Of a DNA stretch of 64,000 bases, positions 7,499 to 54,135 are shown piece after piece. Under the pieces are notes generated by a model. The model had not been told where the DNA came from and did no database searches. It worked only from the letters and a program-made list of their open reading frames with translations. Origin of the DNA: an uncultured Candidatus Saccharibacteria bacterium (GTDB lineage: Bacteria; Patescibacteriota; WWE3; 9FT-COMBO-53-11); contig CAYGCK010000002.1 of the NCBI GenBank assembly GCA_964348395.1, positions 12,729-76,728 on the forward strand, written 5' to 3'. Made by a program: the position numbers and the translations under genes. Positions within the stretch are counted from its first letter, which is position 1. Each line of letters begins with the position of its first letter.

Positions 7499-8682
7499 AA
7501 ATTTTACATACGGTTGAATTTTACGATCCTTCTGTTGGCGGAATGCAGGAGGTGGTCAAACAGCTTTCGGAGCGATTGGTAGAGCTGGGACACGACGTAA
7601 CAGTAGCTACCACAAAACTTCCGAACCGCAGATCCTCGGAGATTAACGGGGTCAAGATTGTCGAATTCGATATTTCTGGCAATTTGGTAAGGGGTCTTTC
7701 CGGCGAGATTGAAAAATATAAAAAGTTCTTGGTCGAGTCAAACTTTGGCGTAGTTGTAAACTTTGCCGCCCAGCAGTGGGCGACCGATATCGCTTTGGAT
7801 ATTCTTGGCGAGATTAAAGCAAAGAAGGTCTTCGTCCCCACGGGGTTTTCCGGCTTTTACCTTCCCGAATACCAAAGCTACTTTAGGAAGATGAAGGATC
7901 GGATTAAAAAGTACGATATGGACGTTTTCCTATCCAACGACTATCGCGATATCAATTTTGCCAGAGACGTTGGGGTGGACAGGAAGAAAATTACCATCAT
8001 TCCCAACGGAGCGAACGAAAAAGAGTTTTTGAGCAAGAGTAAGAGTAAGATTGACGTCCGGGAGCGGTTGGATACTCCAGAGGAGCACTTTCTCATCCTC
8101 CACGTCGGCTCCCACACCGGGGTAAAGGGTCACAAGGAGGCGATTGAAATCTTTTCCCGTGCCAAAATCAAAAACGCCACTTTTTTAATGGTCGGCAATA
8201 TTTTTGGTGGGGGCTGCAGCGTTTACTGTCCTGCCAAAGCCCTCCTTTTTAAATTTTCGCCCAGGCGCTTGCGTGACGGTAAACGTCTTGTGGTTACCCA
8301 GCTCAAGCGGGAGGAGACGGTCGCCGCTTACCAAGCCGCTGATCTTTTTCTGTTCCCTTCCAATATTGAGTGTTCGCCGATAGTTCTTTTTGAGGCGATG
8401 GCTTCCAAGACCCCTTTCCTAACCGCCGACGTGGGCAACTCGGCCGAGATTGTTGAATGGTCGGGCGGGGCCGGAATAGTTCTGCCAACCGACAAGAATA
8501 AAGAAGGTTTTGCCAGGGTGCGGATTCCCGAGTCGATAAAAATTCTAGAGGATATTTACCGTGACGAGAAGCGGTGGGAAAAGATGGCTAAGGATGGATT
8601 TTCCGCTTGGAAGAAGCGTTTTACGTGGGAAAAGATTGCGAAGGAGTATGAGAAGCTCTATGAGAGCTTGGCTAATAGTTAA
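7495..8682 (+). CDS. glycosyltransferase family 4
   Basis: MKILHTVEFYDPSVGGMQEVV N-terminus; C-terminal FPSNIECSPIVLFEAMASKTPFLTADVG is GT4-typical. Confidence 0.8.
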   Translation: MKILHTVEFYDPSVGGMQEVVKQLSERLVELGHDVTVATTKLPNRRSSEINGVKIVEFDISGNLVRGLSGEIEKYKKFLVESNFGVVVNFAAQQWATDIALDILGEIKAKKVFVPTGFSGFYLPEYQSYFRKMKDRIKKYDMDVFLSNDYRDINFARDVGVDRKKITIIPNGANEKEFLSKSKSKIDVRERLDTPEEHFLILHVGSHTGVKGHKEAIEIFSRAKIKNATFLMVGNIFGGGCSVYCPAKALLFKFSPRRLRDGKRLVVTQLKREETVAAYQAADLFLFPSNIECSPIVLFEAMASKTPFLTADVGNSAEIVEWSGGAGIVLPTDKNKEGFARVRIPESIKILEDIYRDEKRWEKMAKDGFSAWKKRFTWEKIAKEYEKLYESLANS

Positions 8683-8740
8683 TGGCAAATGACTAATGGT
8701 TAGGAGCCCTTCGACTACGCTCAGGGTAAACTAAAAACAA

Positions 8741-9613
8741 ATGATTACCGTAGATATTTTTGGAGGTTTAGGGAACCAGATGTTCCAGTATGCACTAGGG
8801 CGGCACCTCTCCCTGAAAAATAAAGACTCGTTGACCCTTAGATATATAGATGTGGGAGCGTTTTCTAAAAGACCGTACGCTCTTGCGTGTTTTAGACTTG
8901 CGCCGAACACAGTAGTGAGGTCAGAGGTTGGAGGTTTGAGGTCAGAGTTTAGGAAAGTTTTGGAGAAGACTATTCCTTTATCTTTATATAGAGGAGAGGC
9001 GCTAATTCGGGAAAGGAGCTTTCGGTTTGACCCGAAGATTTTGAAGCTTAAAAGAGATGTTCACCTGCACGGGTATTGGCAGAGCGAAAAATATTTCAGA
9101 GACATTCGGGAAACGATTTTAGAGGATTTTACTTTTACGCCCCCGCTGAACAGCCGCAACCAAAAAATTCTTGAAAAGATCAAGAAAACAAATTCGGTGA
9201 GTGTGCATGTGCGGCGTGGGGATTATGTTATGGATCCTAAAACCCACGAGTTCCACGGCGTCTGCGGTCCCGATTATTACCAGAAAGCGGTTAAGGTTGT
9301 CTCCAAGAAGGTCGAGAACCCGACCTTTTACTTTTTCTCGGACGACATCAGGTGGGTCGAAAAGAACTTAAAAACCAAGGTCGAGAATACTTATGTGGAC
9401 TGGAACACCGGCGAGAAAAGTTTTGTGGATATGCAACTAATGAGTAGTTGCAAACATCACATTCTCGCCAACAGCAGCTTTAGCTGGTGGGGGGCTTGGT
9501 TAAACCGAAACAAAGATAAAATGGTTGTTGCGCCTAAACAATGGTTCCAAGACCCGAGTATGGATACACGGGATTTAATCCCGGAAGGATGGTTAACGGT
9601 GGATAGTAAGTAA
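8741..9613 (+). CDS. alpha-1,2-fucosyltransferase (GT11 family)
   Basis: N-terminal MITVDIFGGLGNQMFQYALGRHLS is the GT11 (FutC/WbsJ-type) motif I; HVRRGDY motif present. Confidence 0.8.
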   Translation: MITVDIFGGLGNQMFQYALGRHLSLKNKDSLTLRYIDVGAFSKRPYALACFRLAPNTVVRSEVGGLRSEFRKVLEKTIPLSLYRGEALIRERSFRFDPKILKLKRDVHLHGYWQSEKYFRDIRETILEDFTFTPPLNSRNQKILEKIKKTNSVSVHVRRGDYVMDPKTHEFHGVCGPDYYQKAVKVVSKKVENPTFYFFSDDIRWVEKNLKTKVENTYVDWNTGEKSFVDMQLMSSCKHHILANSSFSWWGAWLNRNKDKMVVAPKQWFQDPSMDTRDLIPEGWLTVDSK

Positions 9614-9633
9614 GGCATAGGAATAGGAGGTAG

Positions 9634-11832
9634 TTGGTGGAGAAACGAAAACAAAAATCTAAATTACGAATTACGAATAACGAATTACGACGGAACCCAA
9701 AAGTTTCGGTTGTGATGGCCACCTATAACGCGCGCGAGTATTTGCGAGAAGCTATCGAAAGCGTTTTAAACCAAACCTTTAAGGATTTTGAGTTTGTGAT
9801 TATCGACGACGGCTCGACCGACGATACTCGTGAAATCATCAAAAGCTATGAGGATCCAAGAATACGGCTCTACAAAAAGGACCACCGGGGGCTTATCGCC
9901 TCGTTAAACGAAGGGATTAAGCTCTCGCGGGGCGAGTATGTCGCCAGAATGGACGCTGACGACATCTCCCACCCACGCCGTTTCGAACTGCAGATTAAGT
10001 TTCTGGATTCTCACCCCGATTACGCCATGGTAGGAACCACAACCGAGATTACCGATACCGAAGGACGAACCTTCAAAATCTCTGCCGAGCCCTTAAGTCA
10101 TGAGGATATATTGAGGGGACTTTTAGTGCGGAATGTCTTTGCGCACGGCTCGATGATGGCGCGACGAGAAGTGCTTTTGGAGTTTGATGGCTACAGCCCG
10201 GAGGCGCTGCACGCCGAGGATTACGACCTGTGGGCCAGAATTATCCGCCTCTACAAAGGAGCCAACCTTCCGCAAGCGCTTTTTAGATGGCGCTCGAACC
10301 CAAAAGGGGTTACCGCCACCAAATTCAGGAGACAACAACAAACAGTTGAGTGGATAACCTCGAGAGAGTGGGGGATAGCCACGAGGGGAGGCAAGTTTCC
10401 CGAAGTTAGTCTGCGAGAGGTCTGGAAAAGGCGTCGGCAGCGGGATCCGGACGACGCTTTTTGGCATCTAAGGAAAGATGCGCTTTCCGCCATTTATGCG
10501 CGGCTGGGGAGAAGCTTTCTGGTTCACGGTAAACGCTTGCGCGCTATAAAGAGTGGTTTGGCTTCGATAATTTTGAACCCGATAGCGCTTAGGAATTACT
10601 TCTACCTTTTAATGGCTTTACTGCCGACGGGGGCTCTCGTCCCGACCGAAAATTTTCTGCGCCCTTTAAAAAGCAGGCTATCAGGAACTTGGAGAAGGGT
10701 CAGACCTCTTAGTCTGATCGAAATTCCCGAAGGAGGAATTCTTTTTGTTCGCCGCGGTATTTACCCGGGGTTTGACTTCCCCGAAGCCCACCAGTTTGCC
10801 GAGGAGCTGGTGAGGCAAGGCAAGACCGTGGGGGTCGTGTGTCTTAGCGCGGGAGGTGAACCTTCTTATGAGGTCATAAACGGGGTCAAGGTTTTCCGCT
10901 TGGCTCCCAACGCCAAGTTTTACCGCTGGATATACCAGTTTTTGTTGGTTTTTAATCTGTGGGGGAGAAAGTATGACATCATCCATGTCTTTTGGGGGAA
11001 GGGATTCTCGTTCCTGCCTCTCTTGGCCCCCTGGTCGGCAAAAAAGTGGGTGCTGGACGTTCGCTCGGGCCATATCGAGGAATCCTGGACCGCCAAGCTC
11101 ATCAACTTTATGATTGTGGTAGATTCTTACCTCTTTGACCACGTGATAACGCTGGATGAGAGGTTGCTCGAGCAGGTTTGGGGGAACTTTCCGGAGCCCG
11201 ACGAGGTCAGTTTTGTCCCCATGGGGGTCAATACCAAACTCTTTCGCTACCGCTACGACAGCAAACTTGCCGAAAGCTTAGGTTTGCGGCGGGGTGACCC
11301 AATATTCGTTTACCAGGGGACCCTGGATCCGGCGAGAAAGTTGGACAAGTTTTTGCGCGGTTTTGCCCAAGCCAAGAAGAAAATTGCTCGTCTCAAGCTC
11401 CTGATGGTGGGGGATGGAGGTGGTAGGGGGGAACTGGAGCGACTCACGCGGTGGCTGGGAATCGAGGATTTGGTTATTTTTGTGGGCCGCGTGCCGTTTG
11501 AGGAGGTCCCGCGTTATATCTCTCTGGGGGATTTTGGGGTCTCTTACGTCCCTCAAACCCCCGCTTTTACGGGCCAGCAGGTGACCAAGACCTTGGAATA
11601 TCTCGCTTGCGGCCGGCCGGTTTTGGCTACAAACCTACCCTTTAACAAGGAGGTTTTGAACGGTAATTCTGGGGTTTTGACCGACGACGATCCCCAATCC
11701 GTCGCTCGCGGTATTGAGAAGATTATTCGGCTTTGGCGGGACAAGAAGCTCAGCGTTGACCCCGATATCGTCAAAAGCTCGTCTTGGTCGAGCATCGTAG
11801 AAGAAAAGCTTCTTCCAGTTTACGGATTTTAG
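9634..11832 (+). CDS. bifunctional glycosyltransferase (N-terminal GT2 domain + C-terminal GT4 domain)
   Basis: AGGAGG RBS at 9623-9628, TTG/GTG start at 9634/9637. GT2 signature VSVVMATYNAREYL...FEFVIIDDGSTDDT. C-terminal GT4 domain (VYQGTLDPARKLDKF...LLMVGDGGGRGELE). Confidence 0.8.
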   Translation: MVEKRKQKSKLRITNNELRRNPKVSVVMATYNAREYLREAIESVLNQTFKDFEFVIIDDGSTDDTREIIKSYEDPRIRLYKKDHRGLIASLNEGIKLSRGEYVARMDADDISHPRRFELQIKFLDSHPDYAMVGTTTEITDTEGRTFKISAEPLSHEDILRGLLVRNVFAHGSMMARREVLLEFDGYSPEALHAEDYDLWARIIRLYKGANLPQALFRWRSNPKGVTATKFRRQQQTVEWITSREWGIATRGGKFPEVSLREVWKRRRQRDPDDAFWHLRKDALSAIYARLGRSFLVHGKRLRAIKSGLASIILNPIALRNYFYLLMALLPTGALVPTENFLRPLKSRLSGTWRRVRPLSLIEIPEGGILFVRRGIYPGFDFPEAHQFAEELVRQGKTVGVVCLSAGGEPSYEVINGVKVFRLAPNAKFYRWIYQFLLVFNLWGRKYDIIHVFWGKGFSFLPLLAPWSAKKWVLDVRSGHIEESWTAKLINFMIVVDSYLFDHVITLDERLLEQVWGNFPEPDEVSFVPMGVNTKLFRYRYDSKLAESLGLRRGDPIFVYQGTLDPARKLDKFLRGFAQAKKKIARLKLLMVGDGGGRGELERLTRWLGIEDLVIFVGRVPFEEVPRYISLGDFGVSYVPQTPAFTGQQVTKTLEYLACGRPVLATNLPFNKEVLNGNSGVLTDDDPQSVARGIEKIIRLWRDKKLSVDPDIVKSSSWSSIVEEKLLPVYGF
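9662..9689. repeat. heptanucleotide tandem repeat (AATTACG)x4, in the 5' coding leader of the GT2-GT4 gene
   Basis: aattacg aattacg aataacg aattacg at codons 10-19. It lies between the start codon and the first GT2 beta-strand. Confidence 0.8.
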
Positions 11833-11851: not shown

Positions 11852-14509
11852 ATGACCAAGACACGGTTGGAAAAACTAGCGGTTTTCTTTTTCCTAATCT
11901 TTTTTATTCTCTCTCCCTTGACTTACAAGCTGCAGATTAGAGGTGGTGTTTATCAGGAGGGGATTTACGTGGAGCCGTTGATAATCTTCCTCCTCTTAAG
12001 CGTGGCGCTTTTTATCTGGGGGATTTGGAAAGGAGGAAGGAGAAAGTTTTGGGTACGTCTCAAAGAGTTTCTTATCCCGCATCCCGTCGCTTTCCTTTTT
12101 TACCTTCTGATAGCGGTTCTTTTGGCCTCCTACCTTTATGGCATCGCTCTTACAGGTTTAACCGCGTTGGGGGATTTCTTGCGCCTCGGCAAGTACGGTT
12201 TGTACTTTTTATCCTTTCCTCTAGCGGTAAAAACCATTCGGGTTTTGGGCGATGTGTGGATCAGAAGAATTTTGATGTTTTTGGTTTTGGCAGGGTTTGC
12301 GGTATCGGTGGTATCTCTCGGGCGCATCTATGGTTACGTTTCGGGAGGAGGGGTTATAGATTTTTGGACTTACTCTCCCTTATCAAGGAGCGTGGGGTTT
12401 TTAGGACAATATTTGGACTTGAGAGACTTTAGCGTAGGGCAAATCCAAAAAGCCGCTCACGCCACCTTTGGTCTTTATCTTTCGGTGGTTTTGGCGGTGG
12501 CTTTTGCCCTCTTTTCCCAAGCTCGGAGCTTCTCCAAGAAGTGGTTTGCCTACCTTTTGGGGGTCGGTACAATCTTCGCTGCGCTTTTGTATACCCTTTC
12601 CCGCGGGGCGGTCGTGACCGGCGACTTGGTGCTTTTGGCGGGGATTGTATGGCTTCTTTTGAAGAAGCGTTTTTGGGCGGTTTTGGTTTTGACAGTTTTT
12701 CTGTTCTTGGAATCGTCCGTTCTTTTACAGTTAAACCCCGAGATCTATCAAAAATTCGCCTCGACCTTCCCCGGCGCGCAAAAGGCGGCGGCGGCGCTCA
12801 TTAAGGTCTCGGCTCCTGTGGGACAGGGGATAATCGGCACGTTTGAGCGTGTTTTTGGTGTATACGAGCCGGATTCGAGAGTACCGACACCTCAGAATGT
12901 TGTGGAAGCCCCGGAAGTTACCGCGTACAGCAACCTTTCTGTGGATAAGTCGCTAAGCGATAGAGTGGTTACGTGGGGGGAGACGCTAAATCTTTTGACC
13001 TCCAAACCGCAGTTTTTCCTTTTTGGAGTGGGGTACAGCATAGATAATCTGCGTCACTTTACCGACGGGGCAGTGGTGTTCCCTCATAGTTTATTCCTGG
13101 ACCAATGGGTTCGCGGGGGACTTTTGGCCCTCGGGGTAGTTCTTGTTATTTGGTTAGTTCTTTTTGTAAAGACCATTCAATTTTGGTCCTCCAAAAACGA
13201 TCTTGTCCGCGCCGTTGGGGTCACCCTCTTTGCCTTTTTGGTGGGGTGGTTTTTGGATAACGCCTTCTCCGGCGAGCAATTTTTCTCGGATGCGCCGATG
13301 CTTGTGTTTTGGGGAACTTTAGGGCTCGTGACAGCGTTGTCAGAGATCAGAGGTCAGAGATCAGAGGTCAGGAAGGTGCTCATAGCGCTTACGAGCTCTA
13401 AGCTGGGAGGGGCGCCGCAGGTCGCTTATGACTTGCTCTCGCAAGTCAGTAAGAGAAAGAGTAAGAGTGGAGAGGGGAAATTTGAATTTATTGTCGCTGC
13501 ACCGAAGGGTGGGGTTTTCAATAAAAAGTTTAGGGAGTTGGGGTACAAGGTTTATCCGGTCCCGCTTAACCGGATTGGTATTGGAGGGTTTATCGGGCTT
13601 CTCAAGGTCGCCCTTAAGGAAAAGGTCGATCTAATAAACTCCCACGGCAAGGGCGCAGGTATCTACGCCCGAAAGGTTGGTGTGCTTTTGGGTATCCCTG
13701 TGGTTCAGACTTTCCACGGTCTGCACTACGATTACAAAAACCCTTTTGCGCGGTTTTTCTACCTCTGGCTGGAACGCTTCCTCACCCCCTTTATGAGATT
13801 TGTAATAAATGTTTCTCCCGGCCAGGAAAAGGAAGGTATCAGATTGAGGATTTTCCCCAAGAGTAAGTCGCGGTTGGTCGTAAACGGAATAGACGTGGGG
13901 AAGTTTGACAGGGTTAGGGTGAACAAGGACAGCCTTCGAAAGAAATTGGGACTCGCGCCGCGGGATTTCGCAGTCGCCGTAGTAGCGCGGTTTGATAGGG
14001 TTAAGGGCCATATACGCCTCATAAACCATATTCCCGACCTTATTAAAAGCATTCCGAACTTAAAAGTCGTTTTTGTCGGGGGTGGGGAAGAGCAAGTAAG
14101 AGCAAGAGCTAGAGCAAGAGAGTTAGGAGTTCAGGATTCAGTGGTTTTTTTGGGAGAGAGAAGTGACGTTCCCAAGATCCTCAAATCCGCAGACGCTCTG
14201 ATTTTGCCATCTTTTCATGAGGGGATGCCTCTTGCGGTGCTTGAGGCCTACGCGTGCGAGCTCCCCGTTATCGGTGCGGACGTGGTTGGAGTGGCGGATG
14301 TAGTCGAGGATGGAAGGACCGGATATTTGGTTTCTTTTGACGAGGGGTCAACGGAGCTCAAGCGCGCGCTCGGTAAGCTCTACAAGAGCAAGACGCTTAG
14401 GGAAAAGCTTGGCAAGGCGGGGAGACGCATGGTGGAGGAGAAGTTTTCCCTAGACCGGTTTGTTCGAGGTACACTTAAGGTGTACAAGGAGGCACTTCTT
14501 AGGTCATGA
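11852..14509 (+). CDS. fusion protein: O-antigen ligase/polymerase-like (Wzy_C) polytopic membrane domain + C-terminal GT4 glycosyltransferase
   Basis: About 10 predicted TM helices. Wzy_C-like LYTLSRGAVV and GVGYSIDNL...FPHSLFLDQWVRGGLLALG motifs. A GT4 domain follows from about KVLIALTSSKLGGAPQVAYDL, with the C-terminal ILPSFHEGMPLAVLEAYACELPVIGADVVG. Confidence 0.75.
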   Translation: MTKTRLEKLAVFFFLIFFILSPLTYKLQIRGGVYQEGIYVEPLIIFLLLSVALFIWGIWKGGRRKFWVRLKEFLIPHPVAFLFYLLIAVLLASYLYGIALTGLTALGDFLRLGKYGLYFLSFPLAVKTIRVLGDVWIRRILMFLVLAGFAVSVVSLGRIYGYVSGGGVIDFWTYSPLSRSVGFLGQYLDLRDFSVGQIQKAAHATFGLYLSVVLAVAFALFSQARSFSKKWFAYLLGVGTIFAALLYTLSRGAVVTGDLVLLAGIVWLLLKKRFWAVLVLTVFLFLESSVLLQLNPEIYQKFASTFPGAQKAAAALIKVSAPVGQGIIGTFERVFGVYEPDSRVPTPQNVVEAPEVTAYSNLSVDKSLSDRVVTWGETLNLLTSKPQFFLFGVGYSIDNLRHFTDGAVVFPHSLFLDQWVRGGLLALGVVLVIWLVLFVKTIQFWSSKNDLVRAVGVTLFAFLVGWFLDNAFSGEQFFSDAPMLVFWGTLGLVTALSEIRGQRSEVRKVLIALTSSKLGGAPQVAYDLLSQVSKRKSKSGEGKFEFIVAAPKGGVFNKKFRELGYKVYPVPLNRIGIGGFIGLLKVALKEKVDLINSHGKGAGIYARKVGVLLGIPVVQTFHGLHYDYKNPFARFFYLWLERFLTPFMRFVINVSPGQEKEGIRLRIFPKSKSRLVVNGIDVGKFDRVRVNKDSLRKKLGLAPRDFAVAVVARFDRVKGHIRLINHIPDLIKSIPNLKVVFVGGGEEQVRARARARELGVQDSVVFLGERSDVPKILKSADALILPSFHEGMPLAVLEAYACELPVIGADVVGVADVVEDGRTGYLVSFDEGSTELKRALGKLYKSKTLREKLGKAGRRMVEEKFSLDRFVRGTLKVYKEALLRS
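13341..13372. repeat. heptanucleotide tandem repeat (CAGAGAT/CAGAGGT)x4 at the Wzy_C/GT4 domain junction
   Basis: cagagat cagaggt cagagat cagaggt cagg, encoding SEIRGQRSEVR between the last TM region and the GT4 N-terminus. Confidence 0.8.
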
Positions 14510-49220: not shown

Positions 49221-49772
49221 TTGAATTGGATTTATATTGTTTTGGGAATCGTTGGCGCGCTAGGGATTTTTCTTTTTTGGCTCTATAACACCCTTGTTCG
49301 TTCCCGTACTCGGGTTGAAGAAGCCTGGAGCCATATCGACGTCCAGCTAAAGCGACGTGCGGATCTCATACCAAATTTGGTCGAGACGGTCAAGGGATAC
49401 GCCAAACACGAGAAGGGGGTTTTTGAGAATGTTACCAAAGCCCGTTCCGCCATACTTTCGGCCAAGACCGTTAAAGAGTCGGAGGATGCGGATAACATGC
49501 TAACCGGTGCCCTCAAAACACTTTTCGCGGTGGCTGAGAATTATCCCGAACTTAAGGCCTCAGAGAATTTCAAGGAGCTTCAGGATGAGCTTTCCGATAC
49601 GGAAAACAAGATCGCCTACGCCCGACAGTTCTACAACGGTAACGTTCGCGACTTTAACATTCTGATTAAGAGTTTTCCGAACGTGCTTCTCTCATCCGCG
49701 CTGGGATTCAAACCGGCTGAGTTCTTCGAAGCCGAGGCCGGTGAGCGGGAAAAGCCGGAGGTGAAGTTTTAG
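49221..49772 (+). CDS. lemA: LemA family protein
   Basis: N-terminal TM plus [44 protein letters not shown]. Confidence 0.85.
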
Positions 49773-49805
49773 GGTATAGCGACTAGGGTTTAGGGTATAG
49801 GAATG
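49770..49805. repeat. intergenic spacer made entirely of heptanucleotide repeats (TAGGGTA-like x5) from the lemA stop to the htpX start
   Basis: tagggta tagcgac tagggtt tagggta taggaATG. Each unit starts with TAG, so a stop is present in all three frames. Confidence 0.75.
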
Positions 49806-52406: not shown

Positions 52407-52798
52407 ACTTTCTTTTCGGGAGAAAAGAAAAGAAGGTAGTAAGGACGACCGTGGGGGTGCTCAAGCCCTACGATAGGGATTATATAAAGGGGGAATGGAC
52501 CAGGGTCGAGGAGTTGGTTTCGACCGCCCGTCCTAGCGCTTTTAAGGAAGCGGTTATCTTGGCAGATAAACTTTTAGATTACGCGCTTGCACAAATTTCC
52601 TCGGGCGAGACCATGGGGGAGAGGTTAAAAAACGCCGCACCCGCTTTTTCTCGGGATATTTACCAAGGACTTTGGGACGCCCATAAGGCGCGAAACGCTC
52701 TGGTTCATGAGGCGCAATTTGATTTAACGACCGCTCTGGCAAAGGATGTTCTGGCTAAATTTAAGAAAGGCTTTATGGAGCTGGGGGTCAGAATATGA
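52397..52798 (+). CDS. hypothetical 133-aa protein inserted between gatA and gatB; C-terminal Rx4HE motif (HEPN-like?)
   Basis: GGAGGG RBS 7 nt upstream; overlaps the gatA stop and the gatB start (ATGA). Helical C-terminal half contains KARNALVHEAQF (R-x4-H-E). No confident family assignment. Confidence 0.55.
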   Translation: MVLDFLFGRKEKKVVRTTVGVLKPYDRDYIKGEWTRVEELVSTARPSAFKEAVILADKLLDYALAQISSGETMGERLKNAAPAFSRDIYQGLWDAHKARNALVHEAQFDLTTALAKDVLAKFKKGFMELGVRI

Positions 52799-54135
52799 GA
52801 AAACCGGAAACTGGAAACCGGAAACTGGAAACTGATTACCGACCCGTCATCGGACTGGAGGTCCACGTGCAGGCTAAGACCCGCTCGAAGATGTTTTGCG
52901 GGTGTCCTGCCGATACTTTTGGAAAAAAGCCCAACTCGGTCGTGTGTCCCGTTTGTCTGGGTTTGCCGGGGGCGATACCCGTTCCCAACAGGGCGGCTAT
53001 TGAGAAGACAATTGCTCTGGCCAAAGCTTTGGGGTGTCGGATAACCAAGTTCTCTCAATTCGAGCGCAAAAACTACTTTTATCCTGATTTGCCCAAGGGG
53101 TTTCAGATCAGCCAGTACGAACACCCTATCGGGGTTGAGGGTAAACTTCTAGGATTTGCGGTGAGCCGCGTCCATTTAGAGGAAGACACCGGCAAGCTTC
53201 TTCACGAGGGCGGGCAAACGTTTATTGACTTCAACCGTTCCGGCGTTCCGCTGGTTGAAATAGTGACCGAACCCGAATTCGAAGATCCGGCCCGGGTGTC
53301 CGAGTTTCTAAAGGAACTTCGACTTCTGGTCGTAAACGCCGACATCTCTGACGCCGATATGGAAAAAGGTTCTATGCGGCTTGAGGCCAACGTTTCGCTA
53401 AAGAAATCGGGGTCGAAAAAACTACCGGGCTACAAGGTCGAGCTCAAAAATATCAATTCCTTTGCTTTCCTTAAGAAAGCTCTCGAGGTTGAAATAGAAC
53501 GACAAGGTAAGCTTCTAAAAAGCGGGAAACAACCTCACCAGGAAACCCGCGGGTTTGACCCCAAGCGCGGAGTGACGGTAGCGCAGCGCACTAAAGAGGA
53601 GGCGTTTGACTACCGGTATTTCCCCGAACCGGACATCCCGCCGTTGGAGAAAATCTTAGTTCAAAAAGTTACGCGGACAAAGACAATTACTGCAGATGCC
53701 ATACTTGTGGAATCGCCAGAAAAGATTCGCGAGAAGTATCGCTCTCAAGGCCTCTCGGCTCAATACACCGAGGTCTTAGTTGGAAATCCTAAGTTGGCGA
53801 GGATTTTTGAGGAGGTGAGTGCCAAAATTCCGGCGGATGAGGCGGCAAACATCATAGTAAACAGGCGGTTTGGTGATCCTCTTCGACTCGGCGTCAAAAA
53901 ACTCATAGCGGCTTATGAGAAGGAGAGGAAAAAAGAAGTTTTATCCGGGGATAAACTTTTACCCACCGCCAAACGCGTAGTCGCCGACAACCCGCGTGCG
54001 GTTTCCGACTACAGACAAGGGAAAACCGCCGCTTTAAAGTTTCTTTTGGGACAGCTTATGAGGGAAACCGACGGTAAAATGGATCCTAAGGTGGGAGAGT
54101 TGATACTCAAGAAACTTTGCGATGCCAGAACTTAA
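52795..54135 (+). CDS. gatB: Asp-tRNA(Asn)/Glu-tRNA(Gln) amidotransferase subunit B
   Basis: YRPVIGLEVHVQ...MFCGC N-terminal core; GatB/YqeY C-terminal domain. There is a 13-aa N-terminal extension encoded by heptad repeats. Confidence 0.9.
   Translation: MRKPETGNRKLETDYRPVIGLEVHVQAKTRSKMFCGCPADTFGKKPNSVVCPVCLGLPGAIPVPNRAAIEKTIALAKALGCRITKFSQFERKNYFYPDLPKGFQISQYEHPIGVEGKLLGFAVSRVHLEEDTGKLLHEGGQTFIDFNRSGVPLVEIVTEPEFEDPARVSEFLKELRLLVVNADISDADMEKGSMRLEANVSLKKSGSKKLPGYKVELKNINSFAFLKKALEVEIERQGKLLKSGKQPHQETRGFDPKRGVTVAQRTKEEAFDYRYFPEPDIPPLEKILVQKVTRTKTITADAILVESPEKIREKYRSQGLSAQYTEVLVGNPKLARIFEEVSAKIPADEAANIIVNRRFGDPLRLGVKKLIAAYEKERKKEVLSGDKLLPTAKRVVADNPRAVSDYRQGKTAALKFLLGQLMRETDGKMDPKVGELILKKLCDART
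52801..52835. repeat. heptanucleotide tandem repeat (AAACCGG/AAACTGG)x5 in the gatB 5' coding leader
   Basis: aaaccgg aaactgg aaaccgg aaactgg aaactga immediately after the ATG, encoding KPETGNRKLETD. Confidence 0.8.

Follow-up and report, generated by a model that had tools for sequence, protein, structure and literature searches.

A short heptanucleotide array in the leader of a glycosyltransferase gene from a sediment Patescibacteria genome: probably a slowly evolving coding micro-array and not a high-frequency ON/OFF switch

We examined a heptanucleotide tandem repeat in the leader of a glycosyltransferase gene that lies in a 64,000-nt stretch of DNA, hereafter the window (contig CAYGCK010000002.1, positions 12,729 to 76,728 of the forward strand). 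An initial annotation made from the letters of this DNA had proposed that the repeat is a phase switch, at which slippage turns the enzyme on and off. We favor a different reading, to which we assign a probability of roughly 0.6: the tract would be a short, slowly evolving and partly decayed coding micro-array, at most a weak frameshift hot-spot and not a high-frequency ON/OFF switch. Five observations speak against the proposed switch. The tract is interrupted and has only 2.4 perfect units, its length and register are stable in orthologues, every orthologue is in the ON state, a similar array lies at the start of gatB, and the DNA comes from a deep marine-sediment bacterium that is not a known host-associated pathogen.

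The history that we envisage is as follows. The array encodes an N-terminal extension that lies ahead of the GT2 domain, is basic and little conserved, and can be dispensed with. It is old; it would have arisen and occasionally been homogenized within each lineage by replication slippage or unit turnover, and it may persist since the basic leader tolerates change. In this genome and its WWE3-like relatives, short non-triplet arrays would survive only where insertions are tolerated, that is, in N-terminal leaders, an interdomain linker and a 5' untranslated region (UTR). Because only 2.4 units are uninterrupted, slippage is expected to be rare, presumably too rare for a useful switch.

Results and Discussion

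The array is short and interrupted

The initial annotation gave the repeat as (AATTACG)x4. The position, 9662-9689, and the number of units were right, but a T>A change turns the third unit into AATAACG, so that the array of 28 bases is imperfect. Its longest perfect period-7 tract covers 17 nt (9662-9678, 2.4 units) and is followed by one of 11 nt (9680-9690). Tandem Repeats Finder (TRF) reported an array at 9662-9690 with a period of 7, 4.1 copies, 90% matches and a score of 51, and with relaxed settings it extended the period-7 signal to 6.2 copies across 9643-9684.

We considered whether the likeness of the units could be fortuitous, in low-complexity sequence that never underwent duplication, an explanation that is effectively refuted. 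The A-rich, low-complexity leader does raise the odds of short repeats, but when the window was shuffled 100 times with dinucleotides preserved, the mean number of arrays with a TRF score of at least 50 was 0.13 per window, versus 4 loci observed. The 35-nt array segment has 22 of 28 possible lag-7 matches, a value attained in 0 of 20,000 composition-preserving shuffles, and its register is common to four orthologues. The array is therefore more than a product of chance. An assembly artefact was also rejected as its source, the 28-nt array being shorter than the read length and lying in a contig of 154 kb with a coverage of 724.8x.

Gain or loss of a unit would truncate the enzyme

As had been described, the repeat stands between the start codon and the catalytic domain: it spans codons 9-18, and the GT2 domain begins at residue 25. 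A unit of seven, not a multiple of 3, inside the reading frame has the frame-shifting property of a simple sequence repeat (SSR) contingency locus, and the prediction that a one-unit change truncates the enzyme was borne out in simulated alleles. Addition of one unit led to a stop after 17 codons, where the imperfect unit gives rise to a TAA, and removal of one unit led to a stop after 24 codons, at the TGA at 9713-9715. This TGA overlaps an in-frame ATG at 9715, and an allele lacking one unit may nevertheless produce a protein truncated at its N-terminus, by termination and reinitiation there. Such a product would be missing the conserved PKVSVV, which, like the longer PKVSVVM, we interpret as strand one of the GT2 domain, and it would probably be inactive. 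For the out-of-frame alleles a gene caller was predicted to return products of 706, 705 or 696 aa. No product of 696, 705 or 706 aa was present among the homologue matches, in which the species is sampled by only one genome.

Register and length of the array are shared among orthologues

We compared six orthologues, DNA included, namely the window gene and five retrieved genes (P0002-P0006; loci L162, L165, L166, L167 and L168) with 60-62% protein identity. None of the six was truncated or out of frame. The five orthologues have a basic leader of 9-18 residues before the invariant P(K/R)VSVVM, versus 20 in the window, and because leaders span this range of 9-20 residues the leader is dispensable in length. 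In one orthologue just 9 residues precede the conserved PKVSVVM, in agreement with the earlier description of a dispensable leader. The leader peptide of the window is partly common to P0003 (ITNNELRRNPK versus IANYELLRKPK).

To define the register we divided the DNA of each locus into 7-mers, starting at the conserved Pro codon of PKVSVVM and moving upstream. A heptamer array in one register, ending 7 nt 5' of the Pro codon, was present in four of the six loci; in L165 and L168 no array was seen by TRF or in the Pro-anchored heptamers. Lag-7 periodicity was significant in all four (p < 5e-5 in three, p = 0.015 in L162). Since the chance that four lineages share a register is approximately (1/7)^3, the array is ancestral to the four.

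Copy number in relatives, a comparison that the initial annotation had put forward as a check, gave no sign of length switching at about 60% identity. Five clear units were counted in each of the window, L166 and L167, and in L162 only about the last three were recognizable. Net array length is thus stable among deeply diverged orthologues, the opposite of what a hypermutable tract would present. The mean identity between units was 0.64 within arrays (0.71 in the window), while between lineages it was 0.51 for units at the same position and 0.48 for units at different positions. Because units are more alike within a lineage than between lineages, there has probably been occasional turnover of units by slippage or conversion. 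The tract appears dynamic on an evolutionary time scale, and nothing indicates dynamics on a population time scale.

An alternative history is that the array is the decayed remnant of a longer hypermutable tract, an ancestral switch at the junction of the GT11 and GT2 genes that has contracted and become interrupted in all present lineages. Interruptions such as AATAACG are the usual route by which SSRs are stabilized, and the presence of the array in the ancestor of four lineages fits this history. So does the sequence upstream of the gene in L162 and L166, where heptamer-periodic, A-rich sequence continues through a 160-nt spacer as approximately 7-10 degenerate units plus inverted copies. 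However, none of the six orthologues contains a long perfect tract, and the equal number of coding units in four lineages would require parallel contraction to one length. We regard a decayed switch as very improbable.

In L162 (2839-2995) and L166 (2847-3012) the 160-nt spacer at the GT11|GT2 junction consists of degenerate A-rich heptamers (aaattct, aaattac, aaatccc) and then, beside the start codon, of their reverse complements (gtttagaattt), which together form an imperfect inverted repeat. The two genes abut or overlap in the other loci. An A-rich motif of the type 'AAATTCTAAA' from these spacers was tried as a dispersed element of the window and rejected, as it occurred there only once (55948) and was unremarkable.

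Non-triplet arrays occur at other gene starts and junctions

Other genes serve as an internal control: the window contains three further arrays of comparable strength (Table 1), one of which lies in gatB (52795-54135). The extension encoded by the gatB array has 16 residues (MRKPETGNRKLETDYR) and stands ahead of the conserved PVIGLEVH, the GatB_N domain begins at residue 18 (E = 7e-102), and the ATG of the gene overlaps the stop of the preceding gene as ATGA. An ON/OFF role is implausible for a housekeeping gene such as gatB. Among WWE3 relatives, the GatB orthologues have leaders of 3 to about 22 residues, and two of the three relatives examined at the DNA level (L171 and L172) have 8-nt arrays just after the gatB start. 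Non-triplet arrays thus recur at the leader of the essential gene gatB across the clade, with differing periods.

Table 1. Coordinates and sequences of the features discussed, in the window unless another locus is named.
Feature	Position	Strand	Details
Heptamer array of the glycosyltransferase leader	9662..9689	+	AATTACG AATTACG AATAACG AATTACG; codons 9-18; encodes leader residues KLRITNNELR
Degenerate fifth unit	9655..9661	+	AAATCTA; upstream of the array and in its register, with heptamers anchored on the conserved Pro codon
Pro-anchored units, window			AAATCTA AATTACG AATTACG AATAACG AATTACG
Pro-anchored units, L162			AAACCCC GAGCAAA AATTGCT AATTACG AGTTACT
Pro-anchored units, L166			AAACTCA AATCTCA AACCTCC AACTTCA AACCTAG
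Pro-anchored units, L167			AATCTAA AATCTAA AATCCCC AATCTAA GATCGAA
GT2 + GT4 fusion glycosyltransferase gene	9637..11832	+	NCBI NIT04311.1 (P0001), 731 aa; GTG start; 100% identity to P0001
N-terminal leader of the glycosyltransferase	9637..9696	+	20 codons (MEKRKQKSKLRITNNELRRN); 8 K/R; 33% GC, 50% A; precedes conserved PKVSVVM
Shine-Dalgarno-like sequence	9625..9630	+	AGGAGG; 6 nt before GTG 9637
TGATG	9713..9717	+	Simulated variants: stop TGA of the frame with one unit removed overlaps in-frame ATG 9715
GT11 (alpha-1,2-fucosyltransferase family) gene	8741..9613	+	Directly upstream; PF01531, E = 3.4e-39, 135 bits versus cut-off 23.9
gatB heptamer array	52801..52834	+	AAACCGG AAACTGG AAACCGG AAACTGG AAACTG; 4.9 units; TRF score 54-64; codons 3-13
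gatB 8-nt array, L171	301-348		CAATTAAC CAATTAAC TAGTCAAC CAACTAAC
gatB 8-nt array, L172	301-351		CTAATCCG CCAATCAG CCAACCAG CCCATCAG; CYAAYCMG type
htpX-like 5' UTR array	49768..49802	+	TTTAGGG TATAGCG ACTAGGG TTTAGGG TATAGGA; heptamer-based; TRF score 55
Wzy-like/GT4 linker array	13339..13371	+	Perfect 14-mer GTCAGAGATCAGAG x2.4; TRF score 66; gene 11852-14509

The array of the htpX-like gene occupies the entire spacer of approximately 30 nt from the stop of lemA to the ATG at 49803 (Pfam LemA and Peptidase_M48). It holds several Shine-Dalgarno (SD)-like AGG motifs, and a similar ATAGGA ATAGGA(GG) precedes the start of the glycosyltransferase gene at 9603-9630. The last of the three lies in the linker of a Wzy-like/GT4 gene. 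In L168 the corresponding Wzy_C (492 aa) and GT4 (376 aa) proteins are encoded by separate genes that meet at the position of the linker array, and for this reason the array is taken to mark a gene-fusion junction. The linker is as long as its counterparts in the L162 and L165 orthologues. We also observed an octamer array in L165, at 7808-7842 (ATAAGGCA x4.2, 88% matches), close to where its Wzy/GT4 gene ends and just before the next gene start, which adds one more non-triplet array at a gene junction.

In each of the four strongest tandem arrays in the window, the period is 7 or a multiple of 7. When arrays with a TRF score of at least 40 were counted, 6 of 9 in the window had a period of 7, 14 or 21, and the comparison set, 912 kb of unrelated loci, gave 21 of 122 (Fisher p = 0.0025). 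Array density as a whole was ordinary, at 14.9 per 100 kb in the window versus 13.4. Three of the four strongest arrays lay within 35 nt of a start codon, and overall 4 of 14 were start-proximal against an expected 8.6% (p = 0.027). Similar arrays at the gatB leader, the htpX-like 5' UTR and the Wzy|GT4 linker lead us to conclude that non-triplet micro-arrays at insertion-tolerant junctions characterize this genome and its relatives and do not single out the glycosyltransferase gene studied here.

These arrays raised a further explanation, that the A-rich 7-nt periodicity is an mRNA-level element of the translation-initiation region, selected as nucleic acid rather than as peptide. Such an element might act through its A-richness or lack of structure, or as consecutive binding sites for a single-strand-binding protein, for example S1 or a cold-shock protein, that covers approximately 7 nt per unit. 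Across the four array-bearing glycosyltransferase loci, A stands at phase 1 in 18 of 20 units and at phase 2 in 19 of 20, so that 'AA' is kept by the phase of the heptamer and not by that of the codon. Relative to the remaining gene the leader is also A-rich (50% versus 23% A) and GC-poor (33% versus 52% GC). The bias of arrays toward start codons points in the same direction, but survivorship of insertions at tolerant sites accounts for it equally well. A precedent of unproven function exists in the TAACTGA repeats (PMC4679880). On the other side, because the units of three window genes are wholly different (AATTACG, TWTAGGG and AAACYGG) and the gatB orthologues use a period of 8, the arrays have no binding motif in common. 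L165 and L168 do without an array. Folding of the RNA at 9600-9720 gave no sign of a structured element, with a minimum free energy of -19.7 kcal/mol that resembled shuffles (z = -0.82). On balance we consider an mRNA-level element unlikely.

A broader proposition can be drawn from the same observations, namely that WWE3-like Patescibacteria maintain 7-8 nt arrays, conserved in register and homogenized by lineage, immediately after or shortly before the start codons of unrelated genes (glycosyltransferase, gatB and htpX), with a register that lasts for very long times. We consider this unlikely. Were it true, it would imply a lineage-specific mRNA-level initiation element or a peculiar slippage process, and the glycan-gene array could double as a low-rate phase switch, the first case in the candidate phyla radiation. 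The array by itself is an ordinary short SSR; what is perhaps worth a survey is the occurrence in the clade of 7-8 nt arrays that keep their register at gene starts.

Comparison with known heptanucleotide repeats

The rival that carried the initial proposal is a true contingency locus, in which slipped-strand mispairing would switch the GT2-GT4 enzyme ON and OFF and diversify a fucosylated surface glycan exposed to phages and host-cell contacts. The closest known case is neuO of E. coli K1, the polysialic acid O-acetyltransferase of the CUS-3 prophage, which carries a 5' tract of AAGACTC with 3-53 units, 20 being the commonest; 65.6% of the genomes in that study were out of frame, and single cultures contained a mixture of cells with 20, 21 and 22 units (PMC13001214). 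Both genes have a heptanucleotide tandem repeat in the 5' coding end of a surface-glycan enzyme, where it encodes a dispensable peptide and the number of units sets the frame. They differ in that the units of neuO are perfect and vary in number among strains, whereas the array here has 4 units with an interruption and is not known to vary in length, all orthologues are in frame, and the source is an uncultured sediment bacterium.

In H. influenzae, heptanucleotide tracts of 13-38 units are found in the promoters of hmw1A and hmw2A, and a tract of 14 units inside hmw1A (PMC2651432). These contingency loci resemble the window in having a non-triplet SSR at a surface-structure gene, but they are defined by an uninterrupted, above-threshold tract in an open reading frame or promoter. 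The most permissive published cut-off, also from H. influenzae, is at least 3 uninterrupted heptamers (PMC2651432). With 2.4 uninterrupted units, the window tract falls below this cut-off of at least 3 and below the 13-53 units of proven cases. For tetra- and pentanucleotides, PhasomeIt uses at least 5 units, with the warning that tracts close to its limits may not mutate fast enough for genuine switching (PMC6321876).

Several features do argue for a contingency locus. The non-triplet unit lies within the first 18 codons, where a one-unit change leads to early stops, the leader is dispensable, and the gene is in a glycan cluster with GT11. The design is like that of neuO, with its 5' heptanucleotide tract (PMC13001214). 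The array has been kept in four lineages with homogenization inside each, which would need recurrent slippage. These points are set against a tract of 2.4 uninterrupted units, short of the published cut-off (PMC2651432) and of the approximately 13-53 units of proven heptanucleotide switches; an array length and register that are steady in four deep lineages (with about three recognizable units in L162); six of six orthologues ON; and equivalent arrays in the gatB leader. Moreover, no variant protein with more than 62% identity to the enzyme was found in a database of 5.8 billion clusters. We judge a working contingency locus to be improbable. If the tract did switch, contingency-locus biology would extend to an uncultured, ultra-small sediment bacterium, and surface-glycan diversification in response to phages or host-cell contacts would be suggested for that group. 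A caution follows from the gatB leader: because the same genome carries a like array there, phase variation should not be called from the mere presence of a non-triplet 5' repeat in a glycan gene.

A second family for comparison is that of the TAACTGA direct repeats, heptamers in 2-6 copies beside start codons of marine Beggiatoaceae, some Cyanobacteria and Bacteroidetes (MacGregor 2015, PMC4679880). They also occur at presumably essential genes, close strains differ in them by 7-nt indels, and their function is unproven (PMC4679880). Like them, the window has short sets of heptamers at gene starts, three in number and gatB among them. The TAACTGA repeats, however, share one unit, are mostly intergenic, replace the ribosome-binding site and usually occur without an SD sequence. 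In the window the units vary by gene, two of the three arrays lie inside coding sequences, a normal AGGAGG is present, and the arrays do not belong to the TAACTGA type. The heptamer repeats of cyanobacteria known as short tandemly repeated repetitive (STRR) sequences are a case related to the TAACTGA repeats.

Ordinary low-complexity N-terminal extensions are the simplest relatives of the leader, being likewise short, biased in composition and poorly conserved, at 9-20 residues before a conserved catalytic domain. What sets the window apart from them is the period of 7 nt, with a repeat that is visible in the DNA but not in the peptide, and a register that is kept across deep lineages.

Some observations do not sit easily with a slowly evolving micro-array. 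Three of the four units of the AATTACG array are identical, which makes it more homogeneous than an ancient array under point mutation alone and suggests that slippage was fairly recent in the window lineage. In the class of the gene, a glycan glycosyltransferase beside GT11, and in the 5' position of the repeat, the locus exactly matches proven contingency loci, neuO among them. Conservation of 'AA' across lineages at phases 1-2 of the heptamer may be due to selection acting on the nucleic acid and not to neutral persistence. Finally, the species is represented by one sequence, and the comparison of lengths rests on orthologues that are approximately 60% identical.

We looked for the same-species locus in two further searches. 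It was absent among the matches listed in a profile search of genome contigs with an alignment of the six orthologues, which returned generic GT2 at 32-48% identity, and among those listed in a protein search of metagenome contigs, which returned generic GT2 domains, again at 32-48% identity. For the array locus we propose the variable-gap DNA pattern GAAACGAAAACAAAAATCTAA N{0,30} CGACGGAACCCAAAAGTTTCGG.

The glycosyltransferase gene, its neighbors and the source organism

The gene encodes a GT2 domain fused to a GT4-type GT-B domain. In the 732-aa open reading frame, Pfam placed GT2 (PF00535) at residues 25-181 (E = 1.4e-38) and GT4-type domains at residues 385-701, with PF13439 at 386-535 and PF00534/PF13692 at 546-701. 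The earlier description of a GT2-GT4 enzyme of 732 aa stands as to its domains; that length is obtained from an alternative TTG start at 9634, which is only 3 nt from AGGAGG, whereas the NCBI record starts at GTG 9637 and has 731 aa. Exact look-up of the 732-aa product retrieved no record. The 731-aa product occurs on a single contig (WVZC01000267.1, GCA_011772635.1) common to two samples and forms a one-member cluster. The strong ribosome-binding site and the GT11 gene directly upstream that had been noted were both confirmed (Table 1).

By profile the upstream neighbor is a member of the GT11 family, an assignment that does not extend to the donor sugar and acceptor. The surrounding genes encode further glycosyltransferases and the Wzy-like/GT4 fusion and make up a glycan gene cluster. 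GT11 stands immediately 5' of the GT2/GT4 gene in all five orthologous loci, and the order GT4 - GT11 - GT2/GT4 - Wzy/GT4 is kept in four of the five. A scan of 8500-10200 found no promoter-like site, and its two terminator-like matches lay inside upstream genes at about the frequency expected from shuffles; the glycosyltransferase gene is therefore probably co-transcribed with GT11. An Rfam scan of the window returned tRNAs only.

The source is a metagenome-assembled genome (MAG) of 1.07 Mb with a GC content of 48.2% and a coverage of 724.8x, Candidatus Saccharibacteria / Patescibacteria bacterium CS3-C112 (WVZC00000000, BioSample SAMN13684436); it originates in deep marine sediment of the Gulfs of the Kathiawar Peninsula (PMC8319310). 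Nothing ties the organism to an animal host. The earlier framing of the repeat as a means of immune evasion in a host-associated bacterium is baseless here and can serve as analogy only, because the DNA comes from a deep marine-sediment MAG of the Patescibacteria (PMC8319310). The nearest homologues of the glycosyltransferase (by the UniRef name of P0004) and of GatB (several named matches with 60-62% identity) are from candidate division WWE3, and for this reason the record label 'Candidatus Saccharibacteria bacterium' is probably imprecise at the phylum level.

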